Part shown: in pieces, positions 1,638 to 36,895 of the stretch
How positions within the stretch are numbered: position 1 is the first letter of the stretch
How the letters are laid out: every line of letters starts with the position of its first letter
Assembly: GCA_044892525.1 (NCBI GenBank)
Contig: CM097885.1
Span: forward strand, 112,344,001-112,408,000
From: Schmidtea polychroa
Lineage: Eukaryota
Length of the DNA: 64,000 nucleotides
Direction of reading: 5' to 3'
Position numbers and translations under genes: made by a program
Notes under the pieces: generated by a model
Told to the model about the DNA's origin: nothing
Seen by the model: the letters and a program-made list of their open reading frames with translations, nothing else
Databases searched by the model: none

Positions 1638-2203
1638 ATGGACGCTGATTTACACAAAATTTTGAATGCCATGTTGATGGGTGAAAATGGTAAATTATTT
1701 AGTTATTATTATTATTATTTTTATTTATTATTTTAGAGAATTTATGGTACCAAGTGACTGAAGATGATTCAATTTTGAATGTTGATAGGATTTTCGGTAA
1801 ATTTAAATATTTTAATTTTTATGAAATTATTATTTTATTTAGAACCTATTATAATTAGCGACGATGATGATGTCGTGTTTATTGGGCAAAATGATGCCCC
1901 GGATAATGATGCCTTATTTGTTAGGCAAAACAATGTTTTTAATGAACAAAGTAAATTTATTTTATTTTAGTATATTATTTTTTAAAAATCATTTTAGTGT
2001 TTAATGTTGACATGGACGCTGAAATCGATGTTCCAATTAATAATGATTCTATTGAGGAGATGAATAATGCACTGACTTCTATCGATGAGCTGAATTATGT
2101 GGATAATACAATCGAGGAGCTTGTTAATGTGGATAATGCCCTCACTTCTATTGAGGAGGTTGCTGATAATGAATCAGATTCCGACATGGAATCACGATGT
2201 TAG
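1638..2203 (+). CDS. Four-exon acidic accessory protein (141 aa) of Polinton 1, function unknown
   Basis: Exons 1638-1689, 1737-1796, 1843-1950 and 1998-2203 are joined by three phase-1 GT-AG introns (47, 46, 47 nt). The total of 426 nt is stop-free and joins the track ORFs 1779..1970 and 1997..2203. Confidence 0.75.
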
Positions 2204-3238: not shown

Positions 3239-4390
3239 GTGATGAAAAAATATTATGGTCGTAAATTTTATGGCATCAAGTACTATATATGCCCAATATG
3301 CGAGACTTCCCATAGCATTAAATATTTAGAGTTTTACAGTATACATAAATCCCATTTAAATCAGTTCTCTTTAAATAAAAAGGATTTATTTAACAAACTA
3401 CGAAATACTGCAAAACCTATAATTAAAACTAATGTAAATAATACAAAACCTGTAAATAATATTACAAAACCTGTAAATAATAATACAAAACCTGTAAATA
3501 ATATTACAAAACCTGTAAATAATAATACAAAACCTGTAAATAATATTACAAAACCTGTAAATAATAATACAAAACATGTAAATAATAATACAAAACATGT
3601 AAATAATATTACAAAACCTCTAATTAATAATGTTATTAATGTAAATAATAATTTAAAAAGACCTGCTGTTAGTATTGGGTCTGATGCTCCCTCTAAAATT
3701 AATAAATTAGAACAAATAACTGTGGTTAATAATATTCAAGTAGGCGGTTCAGTCGATATTGACGATGAACCTGAAATCGAAATTGATTTTAAGGGGGTTC
3801 GAAAGAATCTAAGATTTAATGTAGAAAAGGATAACATCATTCAAATATCCATAACCGATAAAATCGTTAATAAGTTAAATCATGAAATAAACAGAATGGG
3901 GTCGGTGAAAATACAATTCTCTGTTTTGATTCAATTTGAAAAAGATGGTGAAATTAAAGATAATTTCTTCTCGAATAGGGCAGAGGCTTTTTCAGATAGT
4001 TTTCTAAGTGAGGGGGTTCACAAATTAAATAATAAAATAGAAAAATTCACATATTTGGGTAGTGGATGGCGGGTTGTTAAAATCAAAGAAATAGATTTTA
4101 TATTAACAAAATTTACACATATGAATAGGCTAGCTGGACATAGTTATATCCCCACCCCATCATCTTTAAATTCTAAAAATGCAATAGTAAACGTTAAAAA
4201 CACTGATGATATGTGCTTTATATATAGTATTTTAGCACTTTTAAAACGTAATGTCGTACATAGTCATAGGTACCGTGTTAGTTCCTATGAAAATTATCTC
4301 AACGAGTTAAATTTTGACCCCATTTCCGACTGTCCAATGAAACTATGTGATATTCCTAAATTCGAGATGAAAAATAAGGATTTAATTTAG
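3239..4390 (+). CDS. pPolB: N-terminal portion of protein-primed PolB (terminal-protein/accessory region), separated from the catalytic part by a frameshift
   Basis: GSGWRVVKIKEI, GHSYIPTPSSLNSKNAIVNVKNTDDMCFIYSIL and IPKFE..N motifs are typical of the Polinton PolB N-region; the frame continues after removing 5 nt at 4385-4389. Confidence 0.85.
   Translation: MMKKYYGRKFYGIKYYICPICETSHSIKYLEFYSIHKSHLNQFSLNKKDLFNKLRNTAKPIIKTNVNNTKPVNNITKPVNNNTKPVNNITKPVNNNTKPVNNITKPVNNNTKHVNNNTKHVNNITKPLINNVINVNNNLKRPAVSIGSDAPSKINKLEQITVVNNIQVGGSVDIDDEPEIEIDFKGVRKNLRFNVEKDNIIQISITDKIVNKLNHEINRMGSVKIQFSVLIQFEKDGEIKDNFFSNRAEAFSDSFLSEGVHKLNNKIEKFTYLGSGWRVVKIKEIDFILTKFTHMNRLAGHSYIPTPSSLNSKNAIVNVKNTDDMCFIYSILALLKRNVVHSHRYRVSSYENYLNELNFDPISDCPMKLCDIPKFEMKNKDLI
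3434..3625 (+). repeat. In-frame 21-nt / 7-aa tandem repeat (N/I)TKPVNN inside the PolB N-terminus
   Basis: About 9 units, alternating in a 14-aa higher-order period. Confidence 0.9.
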
Positions 4391-7918: not shown

Positions 7919-9059
7919 TTAAAAATAGTAATAAAACTTAGAAAATAATAATATGTAATCAACGATTTAAACAAAATTATATTATTACGTATTCGATAAT
8001 TAAAACAAAAATTATTAGTTCTAAAAATATTTGGCATCGTTCTAAAAATATTAGACATCGTTCTAAAAATATGACGTAATCGTTCTAAAAATATTTGGCA
8101 TCGTTCTAAAATTATGACGTAATCATTCTAAAAATATTAGGCATCATTCTAAAAATATTAGGCATCATTCTAAAAGTATGATGTAATCATTCTAAAAATA
8201 ATAGACATCGTTCTAAAAATATTTGGCATCATTCTAAAATATTAGACATCATTCTAAAAATGTGATGAGTCATTGTCTTTGTTCTAAAAATGTGATGAGT
8301 CATCGTATGATAAAAATCTATATCTCATTAGAAAGTTCTTGCACAGAGCTTTAAAATAAGCTATCGATCAATATAATATGTTGGCGGGAACAATAATTTT
8401 TGGGATGAAAAAAAGTAGGTCCCCGCTGGATCACTTAATTTAAAAAAAATTACGTAATAGTTCTAAAAATATTAGGCATCGTTCTAAAAATATTAGGCAT
8501 TGATTACGTAATAGTTCTAAAAATATTAGGCATCGTTCTAAAAATATTTGGCATCGTTCTAAAATTATGACGTAATCATTCTAAAAATATTAGGCATCAT
8601 TCTAAAAGTATGATGTAATCATTCTAAAAATAATAGACATCGTTCTAAAAATATTTGGCATCATTCTAAAATATTAGACATCATTCTAAAAATGTGATGA
8701 GTCATTGTCTTTGTTCTAAAAATGTGATGAGTCATCGTATGATAAAAATCTATATCTCATTAGAAAGTTCTTGCACAGAGCTTTAAAATAAGCTATCGAT
8801 CAATATAATATGTTGGCGGGAACAATAATTTTTGGGATGAAAAAAAGTAGGTCCCCGCTGGATCACTTAATTTAAAAAAAATTACGTAATAGTTCTAAAA
8901 ATATTAGGCATCGTTCTAAAAATATTAGGCATTGATTACGTAATAGTTCTAAAAATATTAGGCATCGTTCTAAAAAAAAAATAAAATTTTTTCCCGGGGG
9001 GGGAGGGGGTATATGTGATCTGGAGGGGACATGGCCGGGAGGGGACACATCATACTACT
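7550..9059. repeat. Right terminal (TIR) / subterminal repeat region of Polinton 1
   Basis: Repeat pair flanking the gap at 7554-7880; ~20-nt GTTCTAAAAATATT(A/T)GGCATC arrays at 8030-8975; a 432-bp tandem duplication (marker at 8261 and 8693); G-rich tip ending ACTACT. The partner TIR is outside the window. Confidence 0.7.
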
Positions 9060-9900: not shown

Positions 9901-9960
9901 ATTTTGTCATTTTTTAATTAGTGGAGTAAACATCGTGAAGGGGCGGAAGAGAAGGTACTA

Positions 9961-10288
9961 CTGTAAAATCCCGAGTATAAGCTGCAGCTAATACGTACAT
10001 TAAGGCAACATTTCTGAATTGCAGCTAATATGATGTGCAGCTTATACAACTAAAAATCGAAGATAAGATTATTTATTTCAATTTTCAACATCACACTCCT
10101 CAAAACCATCACACTTTTCATTGTCAATAAAAGTGAAATTTTTTAGTAATTCTACAATGTTTGGATCAGACTCGTTCACATTCATTTCATTTGTTTTTTA
10201 ATGATAGATTGCTGATTTTAAAATCATGTGTTTTCAACGCAAATGGTGCAGCTAATACGCGCTGCAGCTTATACTCGGGATTTTACAG
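9961..10288. mobile_element. pogo/Tc2-like MITE
   Basis: Perfect 28-bp TIR CTGTAAAATCCCGAGTATAAGCTGCAGC; TA on both sides. Confidence 0.9.
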
Positions 10289-10465
10289 TAGTTGCTTTCT
10301 CACAGGCCCGATCACGATGAATGCTAGGCGAGGGCTCTGAATATGGATCTCGCTGCGGTTACCATTGTGTATTTTTAATTTATACAAAACCCCTCGACTA
10401 AGAGAGGACGATGATAATCCAGCGAAAGTTATAGTATAGTTCCACAGCAGCCAGACATTTTCACA

Positions 10466-10811
10466 TGGAGGTGTTCACGAAGTTAGAAAACATTCCAGCA
10501 TTTAGAGGCAGAGACGGTTATATAGTAAACTGCACCACTAATTTCACTGATTTTATATCAGATCGATGAAGTTAATGTCACTAGTAGTTATCACTAGAAG
10601 TTATATTAACATAATTTGTGGTAATGTAAATATTAGTAAAGCTAAAGGATTTGTATTACAAAGACATAAGAGATCTCTTTTATCATTTGTTAACACAAAA
10701 TATCGAAATCTAATGAGAAAAATAATGTTTAAACAACAATGCAGTTTTTTAGGTACATTAATTCCAATTGTATTATCGGCTATAAGCACAATCTCGTCAT
10801 TAAATTCTTAA
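10466..10811 (+). pseudogene. Small basic Polinton protein (pX-like core protein)
   Basis: NIICGNVNIS...RHKRSL...KQQCSFLGTLIPIVLSAI resembles the LNILKGNV...QxGGFL..L protein found before Polinton integrases; 5' part is out of frame. Confidence 0.55.
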
Positions 10812-10831
10812 AATATAATATCATAGAAATA

Positions 10832-12010
10832 ATGGGTGCTAAGAATTCATTACCGGATAAACATAATTTAGATTTAAATATATTAACATCGTGTTGAAGG
10901 AAACATTTTCCAAAAAAAGGTCAAATCAAAGAAGAAAATATTAGAGAAAAAACTCAAAACGATTTGGACAAACCCGAAAGATCCAGATGGTTTTGGTGGT
11001 GTAGAAAAACTTGCAAAAAGAGTAAATAATTCAAAGAAAGAAACTCAAATATGGTTATCTAATCAATTAGCCTACAGTCTCAATAAGCCAATGTTAAAAA
11101 GATTCCCCACGAGGTCTTATAAAACATTTAATGTTAATGATTTATGGCAAATGGATTTAATGGAAATGATTTCATTTTCAAAAATTAATAAAGGATACAA
11201 ATATATTTTGACATGAATTGATGTATTTAATAGATACACTCATGCTATCCCAACAAAATCTAAATCAGCTAATGAAATGGCTGATGCATTAAAAACATTA
11301 TTTGCTGACGGACAGCCTCGTAATTTACAAACATATTTGGGTAAAATTATAAATTAAATAATTTTAAAATTTAGGTAAAGAATTTTATAATAGTAAAGTT
11401 AAAGAAATTATCAAAGGAATAAATCATTACTCAATATTTTCACAATATAAAGCAGCACATGTGGAAAGATTCAATCGTACTTTAAGAGATCGTTTGAAAA
11501 AATATTTTGTATATCAAGGCGATAAAACGTGGATAAATGTTTTGTCGAAAATAATTTACAGTTACAATTTTTCACCTCGTAGAGGATTAAATGGGATAAG
11601 ACCAATCGATATTTATTCAACAAATAGTAATGATACTTGAATATCACAACAAAATAAATCAAAAACAAAAAAGCCAAAATATAAAAAGTAGGAGACCTTG
11701 TTAGAATAAGTAAAATCAGTGCTTCTCCATTCATCAAGAATTTTGATAACAATTGGAGTGATGAAGTTTTTAAAATATTGAAAATAGATACTAATCAAAT
11801 CCGGTCATGCACTTTATTACAGATAATGAAAACGATCAAGTCAGTGGCAAATTCTACGAACAAGAACTACAAGTCATTCCATCACCCACAATCTTCAGAA
11901 TTCAAGAGATTTTAAAAACTAAATCAGGCGGGAAATATAAACAATACTATGTGAAATGGCATGGTTATAAAATTCCTAGCTGGATATCTGAAAACCAATT
12001 GATTAAATAA
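10832..12010 (+). pseudogene. Polinton retroviral-like integrase with C-terminal chromodomain; predicted 34-nt intron at 11341-11374
   Basis: WTNPKDPDGFGG, DLWQMDL, YILT*IDVF, LQT(Y)LG|GKEFYN, HVERFNRTL; chromodomain FRIQEILK...YYVKWHGY..PSWI. Has stops and a D-to-Y change at the second catalytic position. Confidence 0.92.
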
Positions 12011-12015
12011 ATATT

Positions 12016-13035
12016 ATGAAGGAAAACCAGTTTTATATGAATTTACCTAGTAATAGTTGTCCTCTTATTTATCCTGATAATAATGCTAGCAATTTTAAAG
12101 TTGAATTTCAAAACTCAATTTATTTGAATAGTAAGTGGGAAGTAGCTTTGATTGATTTTACATTTGTGTATAAACATTTTCCGTATAACAGTTATTCATC
12201 GGTACAATACGAATTTAAATAATTATGCAAAGAAACTAAATACATGAAATTCGATAATGAAAACAAAATCTTAGAAATTTTAAATTCTACATACAATCCA
12301 GATGTTGACGTGTTCTTGGAAAGATGTGAAAACGTAGTGATTGTTTGTCCACATGTTCTATTTAAAATATCATTTCTTGACACCAAACATGCATCTAAGT
12401 TTGAATTAAAAACCATATCAATCATTAGCAAAACTGACCATTGTCGAATTAAATTATCTAAATTTACTGAAAATAATATCATTGAACAAATTCGAATAAC
12501 TATAAATTACGATATCAAGACAAAATTCGAACATTATTTTGAAGATGAATTATTCTTAACTACTTTATCAGAGTTGCGAGGGTATTTAATGACAATTAAT
12601 CCATCTCCATTTAAAGAAATAAATCTTCAAAATCAAGAATTGGTAAAAATAACACTTGTAGATGATATTTCAAATATCACCTTTGATCAAAAATTAACAA
12701 AAGCTTTAGGATTAAAGAATCAAACTTATATTGAAAAAGACTTTGTTGGTGTGAAAATTCCATAAATATTTAAAATGCATCAACAAATGTTTATTTATTC
12801 AAATATTATTGAACCAATAAATGTTGGTGATGTAAGAGTTCCTCTATTAAAATCGAAATGGATTAAAAGATATGAATAGGGAGAGGTAGTTAAGTTAGAA
12901 ATAAAGAACCCAATGTACCTTCCAATTTCATCTTCATCTATAAACATTAAAATTAATATTCGCAATGATAGTGGAAAATTAGTTAAATTTTCAAAAGACA
13001 CCAAAACACATTTAACACTACATTTTCGTAAATGA
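12016..13035 (+). pseudogene. Minor capsid protein (penton, PZ)
   Basis: N-terminal FYMNLPSNS..YPDNNASNF..KWEVALID; C-terminal MFIYSNIIEPINVGDVRVPLL...LTLHFRK*; internal stops. Confidence 0.85.
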
Positions 13036-13144
13036 ATAATCCTGATATTGTAAACTTTTATAGTAATAGTCAATCTGGTGAAGATTTACCATATTTTGTT
13101 GGTAAACAATATTGAACAGGTTGGTTAAAAACAATAGGTGGATT

Positions 13145-14881
13145 CAGCGCCGGCTCTAGCATTAGTAGCGCCCCGATGCGAAACTCATTTTAGACGCCCA
13201 TTTATTTTATTGGTTTTTTGGAATTAACGTAATTTAATTGGCAATATTAAATTTGTAATAAAAACATTAAAAAATTAATAATAATTCTTTTCCAAGTGAA
13301 ATACAGGTTTTATTTTGTTTATATATTTTTTTATTTTATTGAAACAATATTATAATATACAAAAATTACATAACATACATATATTTTGTATAAAAATTGA
13401 CAAAACTATTATTCTAGATATTTACTTTTCTAGCTTTTAAACTGCCAAATTCATCAATTAAATTATGTATATCTAATTTGTCGCATATATCACTTTCAAT
13501 CGATATCATTGCTAAACCAACTAATCTTTCTTGTGAAATTGTTGATCTTAAATAATTTTTAATTAGTTTAAGCTTCGAAAAAGATCGTTCTCCGCTAGCA
13601 ACTGAAACTGGTAAAGTTAAAAATATTTTAATAGCAATTACAAAATTGGGAAAAATGGAATCCAGTAGATTTTTATATATATATTGCAAGATGTTTAGTG
13701 GGTTTTCAAAGTCTTTCAAAAATTCCTTTGCTATTTTTATTTCATTAAATAATTCTGTTGCAGATATATCTTTTTTCTCGCCATCGGTTAGCATTATTTC
13801 TAAATCAGAACAATGTTTTTTTAATGTATTATCATCCATTTTGTTAATTTCTTTTATATTATGTATAAATTCAAATTTTTCACTATATTTTGTGAAAAGA
13901 TTAAACCTTTCTTTTAAAGAATTGATAGTAATATCTAAAATTGGCAGAAAAAATGATATTTTATATTTAAGTATCGGATCAACTGGCGTTTCGTCTACAG
14001 ATTCATAACCAAAAATTTTTTTCTTTCTTCTTCGTAACGTATTATCTTTGAATTTCGCAGGTATTTCTAAATCAGCTGCTATATTTTCTGCCGTTTGAAG
14101 AATAAGACTAAAATTTTCATCGGATCTATATTCTTCAATAAATTTAATAAGACTATTTAACGCAACTGAAGAAACATTTAAGTTTTGATTTGGATTTTGG
14201 AGCAGTTTACTAACAACGTTAACTTTACTTAAAACATCGTACCAAATAACCACTGAACATATAAATTCATACTCTTTTATTTTGAAAGCCACAGCCTTAG
14301 CTTCATGCTTTGTATTATTATCTATTTCTAGGTTTTCATAAATGTCAACTAAAGCATCTAAAATTTCAGCTATTTCAAACCTAAGTGGACGAAGGGCATC
14401 GACTCTTGATTCCCACCTGGTGGCTGACAAAGGTGGCTGAACACTTTTTTATTTTACTATTAAAATTTTAATATTAAATTTTTTTTTTATTAGCGAAAAA
14501 AGTTTACCAAATAACAACTGAACTGATTGAAAACTGAATAGAACTGGTAGACTTTTAAAATAATTTTTTTTAGCATTAATTTTTTTAATCGAAATAACTA
14601 AACCGAATATAGCAGGCCGTTTCAAAATAAATTTATGCATGTATAATTTATTTTGTTTTGCGAAATAATTAAACAATTCTTAAACACTTCGAAAACTAGT
14701 AGGCCAGTAGTTTTTCAAGGAAATTTTATTTAAAAAAAAAAAAATTCTTATTAAAAAAAAATTTGTTAATGGTTTTTTTGTTAAATATTAAAAAGAAACT
14801 AAAATTCTAAATTGTTTAGCGCCCTTTCCGAGAGGCGCCCCGATGCTTTGCATCCACCGCTTCCAACTAAAGCCGGCCCTG
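13145..14881 (-). mobile_element. Internally deleted hAT transposon
   Basis: TIRs CAGCGCCGGCTCTAG / CAGGGCCGGCTTTAG; perfect 8-bp TSD GGTGGATT at 13137-13144 and 14882-14889. Confidence 0.95.
13414..14430 (-). pseudogene. hAT transposase C-terminal half (ZMYM1-like group)
   Basis: SATRWESR and the dimerization domain LTLPVSVASGERSFSKLKLIKNYLRSTISQERL; N-terminal half is missing. Confidence 0.9.
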
Positions 14882-15000: not shown

Positions 15001-15290
15001 ATGAAGTAAGAATTTAATTTTAATTACTTTAATTTATTGATAATAGTTCTATTCAGATTGAATACATAGGTCGAAGAATTGTTCGGAGCTGAATTTCTTG
15101 GAGTTTTTTCATTAGATAAAATACCATATATTGATGTAAACAAGGTTTTAATTTTAAATACTCAATCTTGTAATTTCAAGTGAGAACTTTGGCTCGCAGT
15201 TTATGTGAAACCGGAAAAAATATATGCATTTGATCCCATGGGGTTTAATTATCCTATTTTCAATTATTTTCCATATAGGTCTGATTGTTT
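15001..15290 (+). pseudogene. Adenain protease of Polinton 2; predicted 41-nt intron at 15006-15046; frameshifted
   Basis: Spliced start MNSIQIEYIG; EFLGVFSLDKIPY, LILNTQS, WLAVYVKPEKIYAFDPMGFNYP align with the element 1 protease. Confidence 0.85.
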
Positions 15291-16234
15291 CTTTTCCATC
15301 TTTAAAACCCTGAATTTGAATTTTTATCATAAAATGTGAATTTTCATTTTCATTTTTAATATTTTCTAAAGCATAATCTTTATAACAATTCATAAATGTA
15401 AAGTTTTCATTGAATTGTATATTTTTATTGATAGCCAACAATAATTCTAAAATATTTTTTTATCGATGTTACCTACTTGTATATTATATAAACTCTGTTT
15501 CAAAGTTACAGGTTCCAAATAAAAATTTAATTAATATTTGATTAAACTATATAAATATAATTACTTTAAACGAATAAGTTATTGGATATTTTAAATATTC
15601 CATAGAATATTGTAGGAACTGAACCGGAGATTTTCTAATAAAATTAACTGTCGATGTTGAATTTTCCTCAAGAATTAACTTGATTACATCTGAATTTACT
15701 TGTTTCTCCATCTTTTTCACTGAAGTTTCTAGAATAATGATTAAGCAATACTAGATAATGATAATGATATTACTTTTATATTGTTGCATCATTAAATATA
15801 ATAATTTCATGCACTCAGTAAATATATATTAATTTTAAAAATCGAGTTGACCAATTAGACAAATCATTTTAATTTTATTGGATGAAAAATTTTATGTGTG
15901 TATAGCATTTCTGATTTTTTAAATATTTATTTCTAATAATCAATTTATGATGTTCATATATTCGTTTTTATTTATAATACAATCTTTTTATAATTTATTT
16001 TGAAACTTAGGTATCTTTGCAATTCATCCGTTCATGACAAAAATTGTCAAAACTATGGGAAAATATTATGGCCAACACCATAACCGTGTTATTTAATTTG
16101 TTTGCCTCATTTGTAATTCAACAGAAAAATTAAATTATTTTGACTTTTATGATCAACATAAAGGTCATTTAAATAAATTATTACATAATTAACTTATCAT
16201 TGCCTCATATTATATTTGATTATGTAATTTTGTA

Positions 16235-16852: not shown

Positions 16853-17965
16853 TGTAAGATAGCAGCTCACCTGCCCTTTATTTATTAATGACAGTGGACA
16901 GTATTAACATGATGATCGTCAAAGGCACATTGATCGCGAACATCTCAAGTCATGAGTGGTTTGTTACCGAGTCAACGATCTACTATTAACCTTATTTTAT
17001 TCACGTTCTTGAGGATAAAAAAATAATAATAAATAACAATAAATAAACAAAATTACCTGAGGGAAAATCGTCGTAATAAACGGGATCTATGGAAACTCAC
17101 AGAGGAAAACGAAAGTAAAAGAAATGAGAAATGAGAAAAGGTATCAAACAAAAGAAGTCGAACAAGAAATTAAAACAAAGGTCATCAGTAATTAAAGAGA
17201 ACAAAAAGGGGAAAATGAATTTCAAATTCCAAAAAAACAAAAACTGAAAATACATATCTCGACAGCCTGCAGAGATAGCGGATTCAAATAAAAAGGCGGA
17301 TAAACGAAAAATGGAAATTATAAAAAAATTATCTCGATAGCTGTCAGAGATAGTGGGAAGCAAAATTATGTGTTCCAAAGGTAAATTAGGAAAAACAGAA
17401 AGATAAGCCTAAGTACCACAAAATGATGAGCTATATAAAAAAGAGGCAGAAGCAGAAGAAAACGACGATGAAATTGTATTAGAAAGTGGAGACGAGAAAT
17501 TTGAGAGGAAAATTTGTAACGGAAATTGTGGAAATTCGCCGAAACGAATTGTTAAGATAATAATGGTTGGAGAAAATCGCCAGAAAAGAATTGTTAGAAA
17601 CCAGACGAGAAGTTATTGAGGTAATTGAAGAAAGTTGTCGAAGATAATTAAACGAGAAACAAAAACTAATTATTGATCAAAGAGTGCTAAAGAAAACGCT
17701 TAGCGAGTAGAATCCAAGTCACGCAAAGAAAACAACCAGCTCAAATTCACCGTTGTTAGAACCAATCGGTAGCTAGTGATCCCCAACCCAGTATTATTCG
17801 TCACAGAGTGTCGTAATAAGCGCTGTGTAATTGTCGGCCAGATTGTTGAACCAATCGTGTTATTGAGTAGTGAAAATTATTTGTGATTATCAATAAAATT
17901 TCATGTTATCAATTGTTATTTGTGGGTTAGTTAAAAGCACGCTTGGAGTCAAAGTAAGAATTACA
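16853..17965 (+). mobile_element. Gypsy-type 3' LTR preceded by a polypurine tract
   Basis: AAAGGGGAGTAG precedes TGTAA...TTACA termini; internal AATAAA near the 3' end. Confidence 0.65.
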
Positions 17966-17985
17966 AAAATTACCTGATTAAATTA

Positions 17986-18900
17986 CAAAATTACCTGAGG
18001 GAAAATCGTCGTAATAAACGGGATCTATGGAAACTCACAGAGGAAAACGAAAGTAAAAGAAATGAGAAATGAGAAAAGGTATCAAACAAAAGAAGTCGAA
18101 CAAGAAATTAAAACAAAGGTCATCAGTAATTAAAGAGAACAAAAAGGGGAAAATGAATTTCAAATTCCAAAAAAACAAAAACTGAAAATACATATCTCGA
18201 CAGCCTGCAGAGATAGCGGATTCAAATAAAAAGGCGGATAAACGAAAAATGGAAATTATAAAAAAATTATCTCGATAGCTGTCAGAGATAGTGGGAAGCA
18301 AAATTATGTGTTCCAAAGGTAAATTAGGAAAAACAGAAAGATAAGCCTAAGTACCACAAAATGATGAGCTATATAAAAAAGAGGCAGAAGCAGAAGAAAA
18401 CGACGATGAAATTGTATTAGAAAGTGGAGACGAGAAATTTGAGAGGAAAATTTGTAACGGAAATTGTGGAAATTCGCCGAAACGAATTGTTAAGATAATA
18501 ATGGTTGGAGAAAATCGCCAGAAAAGAATTGTTAGAAACCAGACGAGAAGTTATTGAGGTAATTGAAGAAAGTTGTCGAAGATAATTAAACGAGAAACAA
18601 AAACTAATTATTGATCAAAGAGTGCTAAAGAAAACGCTTAGCGAGTAGAATCCAAGTCACGCAAAGAAAACAACCAGCTCAAATTCACCGTTGTTAGAAC
18701 CAATCGGTAGCTAGTGATCCCCAACCCAGTATTATTCGTCACAGAGTGTCGTAATAAGCGCTGTGTAATTGTCGGCCAGATTGTTGAACCAATCGTGTTA
18801 TTGAGTAGTGAAAATTATTTGTGATTATCAATAAAATTTCATGTTATCAATTGTTATTTGTGGGTTAGTTAAAAGCACGCTTGGAGTCAAAGTAAGAATT
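17986..18900 (+). repeat. Tandem duplicate (938-bp period) of the 3' part of the LTR
   Basis: Identical track ORFs at 17097 and 18035; sequence looks identical by eye. Confidence 0.9.
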
Positions 18901-34271: not shown

Positions 34272-36895
34272 GGGTGGCAAAACTTTCAAGTCTTGCGGGC
34301 GACTTTTAACTAAATTAAATCTGGCGGTCTACCAGAAAAACTATTTTCAATTGTTACCTGTAGTTATTCTATTTATTCTATTTAAATACAAAACGAATTA
34401 GAAAAAAACTTATAATACTTTACTAGAACGTAAACATATCTTAATATAATATTATTTACTGCTACTACTTGCACCTGATACGTGGCACTGCATCTTATCA
34501 GCAAGTTCTTCGTATTTCGGGCAATAGGAGCTTATGGCGATCCGCAAGCATGATTCCAAATGATCATCTGTCAAACAAGATCGATGTTTTGTTTTAATGA
34601 CATTCATTGAAGAAAAGGCTGATTCACAAAGATAGGTGGATCCAAAAAATGCGGACATATATTCAACTACTCTCCGCAAAATTGGATATTTTTCTTCTGA
34701 AATAAGATTCCAAAAATTATCTTCGGTTGTAGCTCTTGATTTTAAGTAAATGTCGCTTTTCAACGCTATTATCTCATCTTCTAAGCAAGCTGAATCTGAA
34801 TCCAGAAATTCATTAATCTGAGTAGCGATCTCCTCTGTATCAATAACATCATTAAACGGGAATGACATGAACATAGCAATATTTGCAATTTTAGATAAAT
34901 CTGCGAAACGTGTGTTAAATTCATTTAAAAGGGTAGTAATTTGATTTGTATATTTATCGTAAAGAATTCCTGGCGCATTTTTGGATTCTTCTTCCATGTT
35001 TTTAAAATGTTTCAAATCACCCCGTTCTAGTTGACGCACAAACAAGGACAGTTTCTCTTTAAACGTCTTTACTGCCGTTATCATGTCAAGAATTGATTTG
35101 TGTCTCCCCTGAAGCTGTAAATTTAATTTATTCAGGTGCTCTGTAATGTCGCAAAGAAAAGCAAGATTTATCAGCCAACTTTTATCCTCCAGTTCGGGAT
35201 ATAATTCTTCTCTTCCAGTCAAAAACTGTTTTATTCCGGGCAAAAGATCTCTAAATCGTTTTAAAAATGCTGCACGGCTAAGCCATCTTACATCCGTGTG
35301 TAACAATAATTCAGTATTTTCAATTTCACATTGTTCAAGCAAAGTTCGAAATTGACGTCGTTGTAGACTTTTTGCACGTATCGAATTTACTATTTTAAAC
35401 GCAATATTCATTACATAATTAGAGTTCAACACTTTGGAGCATAAGGTTTGCTGGTGGATAATGCAATGATACGAATGAAAACTGGGAATTTCTTCATCAT
35501 TTTTGCAAAGTGTTACAAATCCGACATGTTTTCCGATCATAGACGGAGCTCCATCCGTGGTAATTGATACCAACTTGTGAATCGGGAAATGGGTGCGACT
35601 TATAAAAGACTTGAATAAATTGTAAATATCTTGACCCCTTGTTTGTCCTTTCATTGGAAGAATAGTCAATAATTCTTCTCTGGTTGACATATCATCAAAA
35701 ACCATTCGAATGAAGATGCATAGTTGCGCAGTATCAGTGAAATCTGTAGATTCATCAAATTGCAAAGAGAAAAAGCGGCATTTTCGAATATCTTGCCGCA
35801 AAATATCTTCCAAGTTTTTGCTAATGTCCACCATTCTTTGCGTGCTAGTATTGCGCGTCAATGACATATTGTTGATACAATCCATTATTTCGGATTTATT
35901 TTTAAAATCTTTGAATAACACCTCACCAGCTTCAACAAACGCCTGTTTCCATATTTCGCCATCTCCAAAAGGTTTTTTATGTTTCATCAAAATATTAACT
36001 ACCTTGAATGATGCTAGGGTAGCTGTTTTTGATTTTGAGTTAAATTTCGTAAAAAAAGTTTGTTGTGCACCTAATTGAGACTTTAACTGCTTGACTTTGT
36101 CTTTTCGTACCTCGGAATGTAATGGAAAGTCATACTGTTTGTGCACTGTTCGAAAATGTCGTTCAACGTTAGCTCTTTTAGGTAGTGCTACGTTTGAATT
36201 ACAAATGAGACAAACACACTTATCTTTCATCATTATGAAAAAAAATTCCTGTTCCCATTCAGTATTATAATGGTACGTTTTAGTTTTTTTGGCCGGTTGT
36301 GTCATTGGGGCTAAAACAAGAAAATAATAAAAGCTAAAATAAATTTAATATGAAAATTAATGTTAGACACACTTACATACTCAAAAATTAAAAATGTTAA
36401 CTTTTATAAAGAATTTTTTTTAATAAAAAAATTTTGAAATTAATATTATAAGCAGGTATTATTCAATACTGAATACTTCAAGCTTTCAAATTTTTCTAAC
36501 GAAAACAATTTGATTTCAAAATTGAAATAGACAAACACACGTTTGTTGTATTTTATTTTGGTTGTTTTTTATTTTTTTATTCCTTATCGAAGATTGTAGC
36601 GTCAATGTTTTGCTTTTATTTTATGGCCTACTTGTTCAAACACATGAAATTTATTCTGATTATTAGCTAACTGTATATATTTGAATTTCAAACTAAAAAT
36701 TTACTACACTCTGAGTGTTATCTGACTAATATTATGTTTCTTATTGGAATTTTTTTGTCATATGAATCGAAACTTATTTTAAATATGTTTATAAAGTTAG
36801 AAATTCAATAAATAAAAAACTGATTTTTATATGCAATTTTCCATAGTGCTAGCGGGCTACTTTCGATAGCTACGCGGTCGACGCTTTTGCCAGCC

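Follow-up and report, generated by a model that had tools for sequence, protein, structure and literature searches.

The window, by which we mean the whole 64-kb stretch of DNA analysed here, consists of A+T-rich eukaryotic DNA that includes host genes for a GDP-mannose dehydratase and for a DUF4200 protein, presumably CFAP100, together with two Polinton-type elements. Element 1 comprises the end of a capsid-like gene at 3-479, which matches ORFs of related loci and which we take to encode a capsid protein, an adenovirus-type protease, a long polymerase gene, and an end reading ACTACT at 9059. A frame break in its polymerase gene near 4380 (4376-4390), which is open apart from this point, is a 5-nt local repeat without GT-AG ends and was rejected as an intron. 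Tandem sub-repeats at 7997-8976 (two 550-nt copies of shorter units) adjoin the right end of element 1, and a MITE-like element of about 390 nt with 59-nt inverted ends (9931-10319) lies between the two Polinton-type elements. Elsewhere in the window, 17047-17962 and 17985-18900 form an exact 916-nt direct duplicate, either recent or an assembly artefact, and the minus strand at 34452-36344 has an open reading frame for a hAT transposase of 630 aa that includes a Spin-doc zinc finger.

The only integrase in the window comes from element 2, a decayed element extending from about 10600 to about 15300. Its gene order is that of metagenome loci L004, L005, L010 and L012, of which L005 and L012 carry a polymerase (pPolB); within the window, element 2 shows this gene order and a protease remnant, and its own polymerase and ends are not in the window. 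The features of this region are as follows.

10608-10793, plus strand: small-ORF remnant, a gene that precedes the integrase in related elements (L004, L010, L015, L018)
10887-11340, plus strand: first coding part of the integrase, with the N-terminal region, WQMD and QT-x-LG; start codon not fixed; Pfam rve E 3.5e-8
11320-11325, plus strand: second donor-like GT, 21 nt upstream of the intron-like segment, in a frame-compatible register
11335-11345 and 11369-11379, plus strand: imperfect 11-nt direct repeat (10/11 matches)
11341-11374, plus strand: intron-like segment, phase 1, GT-AG, in the Gly codon that follows the second catalytic Asp position
11375-12010, plus strand: second coding part of the integrase, with KEFYN, VERFN containing the catalytic Glu, and a C-terminal chromo-like end
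12019-13148, plus strand: two decayed genes, left as remnants, which in related elements come directly after the integrase (an ORF of 340-376 aa and one of 100-140 aa)
15079-15297: protease remnant within element 2

A hAT-type element on the minus strand at about 13160-14880, identified by its Pfam hAT dimerisation domain, is inserted in the small ORF of element 2.

The integrase has an rve catalytic core, as judged from the Pfam match of its first half and from the profile of its relatives, which matches retroviral integrases; the roles of the second catalytic Asp and the catalytic Glu are established for such enzymes. The C-terminal end scores below the curated Pfam Chromo cut-off in the window (E 0.0027, 18 bits; cut-off 25.1) and passes it in the relative P0007. 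Both coding parts of the window copy are broken. The first contains an in-frame stop at 11214-11216 and a Tyr where relatives carry the Asp, a substitution that the first-pass annotation had read correctly, and the second contains a stop and changes frame near 11650-11690 and again near 11797. This copy of the integrase is dead regardless of the intron.

The segment at 11341-11374 is 34 nt long, starts GTAAAA, ends ATTTAG, and is 94% A+T, compared with 71% in the flanking coding DNA. It falls between the first and second base of the Gly codon of QT(D)LG-KEF. The alignment with homologues is gap-free over 10962-11345 in one frame and picks up again at 11368-11377 in the next frame with no residue lost, which bears out the earlier proposal that removal of the segment restores the integrase motif. 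Seven registers of the cut would yield an identical product, and in one of these seven alone does the excised piece have the GT and AG ends of a U2-type intron. Throughout the window, GT..AG 34-mers begin at 140 of 63,966 positions and GTAA..TTAG 34-mers at four. The interrupted motif had been described as the catalytic D-x-G-x-E-F; it does hold the second catalytic Asp, but alignment to retroviral integrases places the catalytic Glu in VERFN, about 31 residues downstream. Retention of the segment leads to an in-frame stop at its fifth codon and, on the evidence of the alignment and Pfam, would remove both the catalytic Glu and the chromo-like end, as had been claimed. The 11-nt repeat at its ends arises largely because the TTTAG acceptor meets a TT(A/G)G|GTAAA coding context. 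The segment and six comparison introns showed no consistent motif for a branch site; YTRAY is missing from the 34-nt form and equally from two of those six.

The segment was compared with other introns of the window. The short host introns measure 43, 45 and 51 nt, the 45-nt example splitting DUF4200 at profile positions 67|68, and element 1 has a small gene with introns of its own.

1638-2200, plus strand: small acidic gene of element 1; its three introns (47, 46 and 47 nt) are in phase 1, and each runs GTAAAT..TTTAG

Every exon of this gene is open in the implied frame, and this reading-frame evidence suggests, as context, that Polinton-type elements here carry other host-style introns. In composition and ends the segment fits the host introns. 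At 34 nt it falls below all three host examples, so the intron of the window copy may no longer splice.

For additional copies of the family, contigs from four of the 23 listed sequencing runs (X3, X5, X7 and X8) were compared with the window; none of the 23 is recorded as RNA, which says nothing about expression. Contigs in all four runs carry the segment, the outcome of a check of other copies that the first-pass annotation had suggested, and a variant base occurs inside it in each run (six contigs in X3, seven in X5). Two contigs that are about 97% alike to the window, X7 record 17 and X8 record 25, bridge the site with 17 letters inserted and 8 deleted; three listed upstream indels account for 8 of the inserted and all 8 of the deleted letters, and the remaining 9 could themselves lie upstream of the segment. 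X3 record 2 likewise has a net gain of 9 letters over the site, none of the three records shows a 34-letter gap, and a loose end in X3 at 11367 runs 16 letters to an AG, against 7 in the window. This gap arithmetic, together with the one loose end, suggests that the family intron is about 43 nt long, within the host range of 43-51 nt, and that the window copy was shortened by 9 nt. The intron-like character first described stands, with its GT-AG ends and colinear product, but its 34-nt length is probably that of a shortened form.

The same runs contain copies that appear to lack the segment. X3 record 1 (87% alike over 10844-11574) has 36 letters out and 1 in, a net 35 short; since 36 equals 34 plus 2, this copy is probably without the segment, and the family may therefore be mixed. 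The record may stem from a sister copy without the intron, from loss of the intron or, should the run be RNA, from splicing. X5 record 11, which is 8 letters short, also speaks against a uniform family. A joint of 11235 to 11369 in X3, X5 and X7, with a loose end in X7 at 11369, shows more distant intron-free relatives. No joint of 11340 to 11375, the product expected of splicing, occurs among the 15 of 99 joints listed for contigs of the four runs. X8 carries the segment unspliced; of the four runs it alone was guessed to be RNA, and it may be DNA.

Among database proteins, all 90 full-length integrase matches have an uninterrupted motif. Among 20 shorter matches, the two best stop at the site, namely P0094 (84% identical), which ends QTDLGN, and P0095 (78%), which ends QTDLGKIII, as does its cluster mate P0114 (78%) from a different source; the window reads LGKIIN. 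After the shared Gly, the four read-through tails are N, KIII, KIII and KIIN, each followed by a stop, such that at the protein level the position is constant while the sequence drifts among clade relatives. The introns of P0094, P0095 and P0114 are those we infer from these protein ends. The first-pass annotation had named an insertion peculiar to this decayed copy as fatal to its reading; the opposite was found, other copies and the three nearest database relatives being interrupted likewise.

Across 306 distinct proteins, 258 have an intact motif, 40 have no motif, and eight depart from it after a DxG match, five of these being close relatives and three distant or spurious. The latter (P0258, P0276 and P0185, 34-35% identical) were not counted, nor was P0098, which ends at QTDL and is sister to the uninterrupted P0004. 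In trees whose rows were picked by identity and coverage to the first half of the integrase, the window, P0094, P0095 and P0114 form a clade with support of 99/96 (61 rows) and 95/95 (23 rows), and all four members have an interrupted integrase. A fifth protein, P0115 (70% identical), reads QTDLG followed by the A+T-rich run INIIIFII. It falls outside the supported clade in both trees and joins it in 3% of bootstrap trees; the AU test does not reject a clade that includes it (p-AU 0.383). Its cluster mate P0097 has QTDLG joined straight to the C-terminal end of the integrase and seems to have arisen by an internal deletion that starts at this site. In the gene model P0116, an unrelated fragment is fused to an integrase second half that begins just past the intron site.

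Searches for additional members of the interrupted group gave none. A wide HMMER search found no further close interrupted relative among the best 150 of 6894 matches, none of 72 matches to the second half of the integrase was an exon-2 product belonging to the clade, and protein-based scans of viral contigs gave no confirmed relative. DNA patterns of the interrupted form, which fixed some codons and allowed intron lengths of 22-52 or 23-83 nt, matched nothing in either viral or metagenome contigs. Among the best 80 of 175 metagenome loci, the motif is in frame in 72, has no match in eight, and is split at the site in none.

These uninterrupted loci bear on how the intron might have arisen. 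The site reads AG|GT in 15 of the 72 and GG|GT in nine, in keeping with the earlier suggestion of a proto-splice-like site. The companion suggestion, an origin by short duplication, found no detectable trace: with 19 of 34 matches, a tandem duplication of flanking coding DNA did not outscore shuffled sequence (p 0.52, 0.87 and 0.90). The comparison used the shortened window form, and an old duplication may have decayed beyond recognition. At 27/34 matches or better, the segment has no further copy in the window or in the 80 metagenome loci. According to one review, repeats flank both gained and old introns in Drosophila (PMC3443670).

Differences were counted over 127 columns of the first half, divided into conserved and variable. 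Between P0094 and P0095, 2 of the 48 conserved columns and 21 of the 79 variable ones differ (p 0.0015); between P0095 and P0114 the counts are 0 of 48 and 7 of 79 (p 0.044). In the window copy, 5 of 47 conserved columns are altered, and a comparison with P0094 gives no significant contrast (p 0.20), which decay would lead one to expect. Protein divergence in the clade reaches about 20% with conserved columns spared. If the intron was present in the ancestor of the clade, this divergence postdates the gain, and the gene therefore stayed under constraint. The simplest reason for such constraint would be that the intron is spliced and a working integrase made; constraint on the first half would also fit a role for the half protein alone.

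Taken as a whole, the comparisons make it likely, in our judgement, that the catalytic core of this Polinton-type integrase holds a genuine intron, one that belongs to the family and is probably spliced. What is directly seen is the segment with its ends, its presence in other copies, the clade that breaks at the same residue and the conservation pattern. We propose that an ordinary U2-type spliceosomal intron was gained, presumably once, in the ancestor of one Polinton/Maverick (adinto-type) lineage, at a proto-splice-like site within the Gly codon of QTDLGKEF. The element would be transcribed in the host nucleus and the intron removed, probably constitutively, by the host spliceosome, yielding a full DDE integrase with a chromo-like end. 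The intron sequence would then drift while its position stayed, the family form being some 43 nt, the size of short host introns, and the window would hold a dead copy that lost about 9 nt of the intron and acquired other lesions.

Splicing might instead be regulated, as the first-pass annotation had proposed by analogy with the third intron of the P element. Some cells would then retain the intron while germline or stem cells remove it, so that integration is confined to the latter, and the first half of about 150 aa may act as a repressor. We regard this version as improbable. Retention does remove the catalytic Glu and the chromo-like end, and all four clade members stop within five codons, but an in-frame stop arises that early in 49% of shuffled introns, and the stop was accordingly discarded as a sign of design. 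The second donor-like GT 21 nt upstream would have a counterpart in the pseudo-donor sites of the conserved silencer upstream of the P-element intron, yet it cannot exist in P0094, which has Ile at that residue, and so is not conserved in the clade. Both donor and acceptor, moreover, resemble those of ordinary introns of the host and of element 1. The unspliced form in X8 and the conservation of the first half would each fit a retained, repressor-encoding intron, with the reservation that X8 may be DNA.

A different account holds that the segment was never spliced, and that an A+T-rich insert disabled the integrase of one subfamily, which then spread by means of the integrase of intron-free sisters. 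Intron-free relatives are indeed present in the same runs (the joint of 11235 to 11369, the X7 loose end and X3 record 1), and neither a spliced form among the listed joints nor an exon-2 product among the 72 matches was seen. We nevertheless consider it a poor candidate, given that conserved columns are spared across a clade this divergent, that GTAA and TTTAG ends coincide in the single matching register, and that the length in other copies fits host introns. An account compatible with ordinary splicing concerns the number of gains, in which the site is a hot spot and P0115 acquired an intron independently at this proto-splice site. The position of P0115 in both trees and in the bootstrap trees speaks for it, as does AG|GT or GG|GT at the site in 24 of the 72 uninterrupted loci; we still judge it unlikely, since the AU test accommodates a single clade, P0115 is known from protein alone, and the apparent deletion in P0097 starts from the same site.

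By its rve core, its chromo-like C-terminus and the resemblance of its gene neighbours to those of the pPolB-bearing L005 and L012, the integrase is like those of Polinton/Maverick (adintovirus-type) elements (PMC8097293, 10.1101/2022.07.12.499685, PMC8502044). The same sources present the core genes as intronless, whereas in the present case an entire clade has its integrase broken within the catalytic core; the intronless core, which is a description and not a strict criterion, does not hold for any of the four clade members. More specifically, intact vertebrate Mavericks are reported without introns (PMC8097293), nematode Mavericks have introns in cargo genes only (10.1101/2022.07.12.499685), and a protist survey assumes no introns and uses intron-blind gene callers (PMC10120064). 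With core genes assumed intronless, the members of the present clade are filed as truncated proteins (P0094, P0095 and P0114) and would score as dead.

Several known systems offer partial parallels. Ginger1 elements have Gypsy-like integrase genes with one to four mostly GT-AG introns, some common to several families, but they are small, move by cut-and-paste and lack polymerase and capsid genes (PMC2836005). Dinoflagellate maverick-polinton-like proviruses bear introners, that is, spliceosomal-type introns inside Polinton-like elements; introners are mobile copies, while no further match to the present segment turned up in the window or the 80 loci, and it resembles an ordinary short host intron (PMC11957031). 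Cryptophyte PLVs carry group I introns (PMC12220804). The third intron of the P element, IVS3, is alike in that an enzyme made from the retained form would stop short within its catalytic domain, but IVS3 is spliced in a tissue-specific way, has an exonic silencer and yields a 66 kDa repressor, and the present segment resembles it in anatomy alone (PMC7776569). Extending that analogy, one animal Polinton lineage might be under host splicing control, with the intron selecting between a full integrase and a 150-aa half protein according to cell type or piRNA state; we hold this to be a long shot. Nothing bearing on an integrase intron appears in the available text of PMC8502044, 10.1101/2023.08.22.554363, PMC11296320, 10.64898/2026.10.13.758929 or 10.64898/2026.07.28.741278, and a literature search whose coverage stopped short of most subscription papers, repeat-database annotations and supplements turned up no earlier description of such an intron, spliceosomal in type, in the integrase of an animal Polinton.

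An intron of the kind proposed would be a datable, lineage-restricted gain with many intron-free outgroups, and it would tie integration of the element to the host spliceosome. A regulatory role, if true, would be far more striking. Introns may, as an idea, shield mobile DNA from host silencing. Were the switch real, intron-free sister families in the same genome would provide a natural side-by-side test, setting a germline or stem-cell switch against a shield from the silencing of intronless mobile DNA.

Downstream of the intron, at 11404-11420, the stretch from the second Asp position to the catalytic Glu is two residues shorter in the window than in P0004 and P0005. The shorter stretch seems to be a family trait, because X7 record 21 and X8 record 27 are likewise without extra letters.
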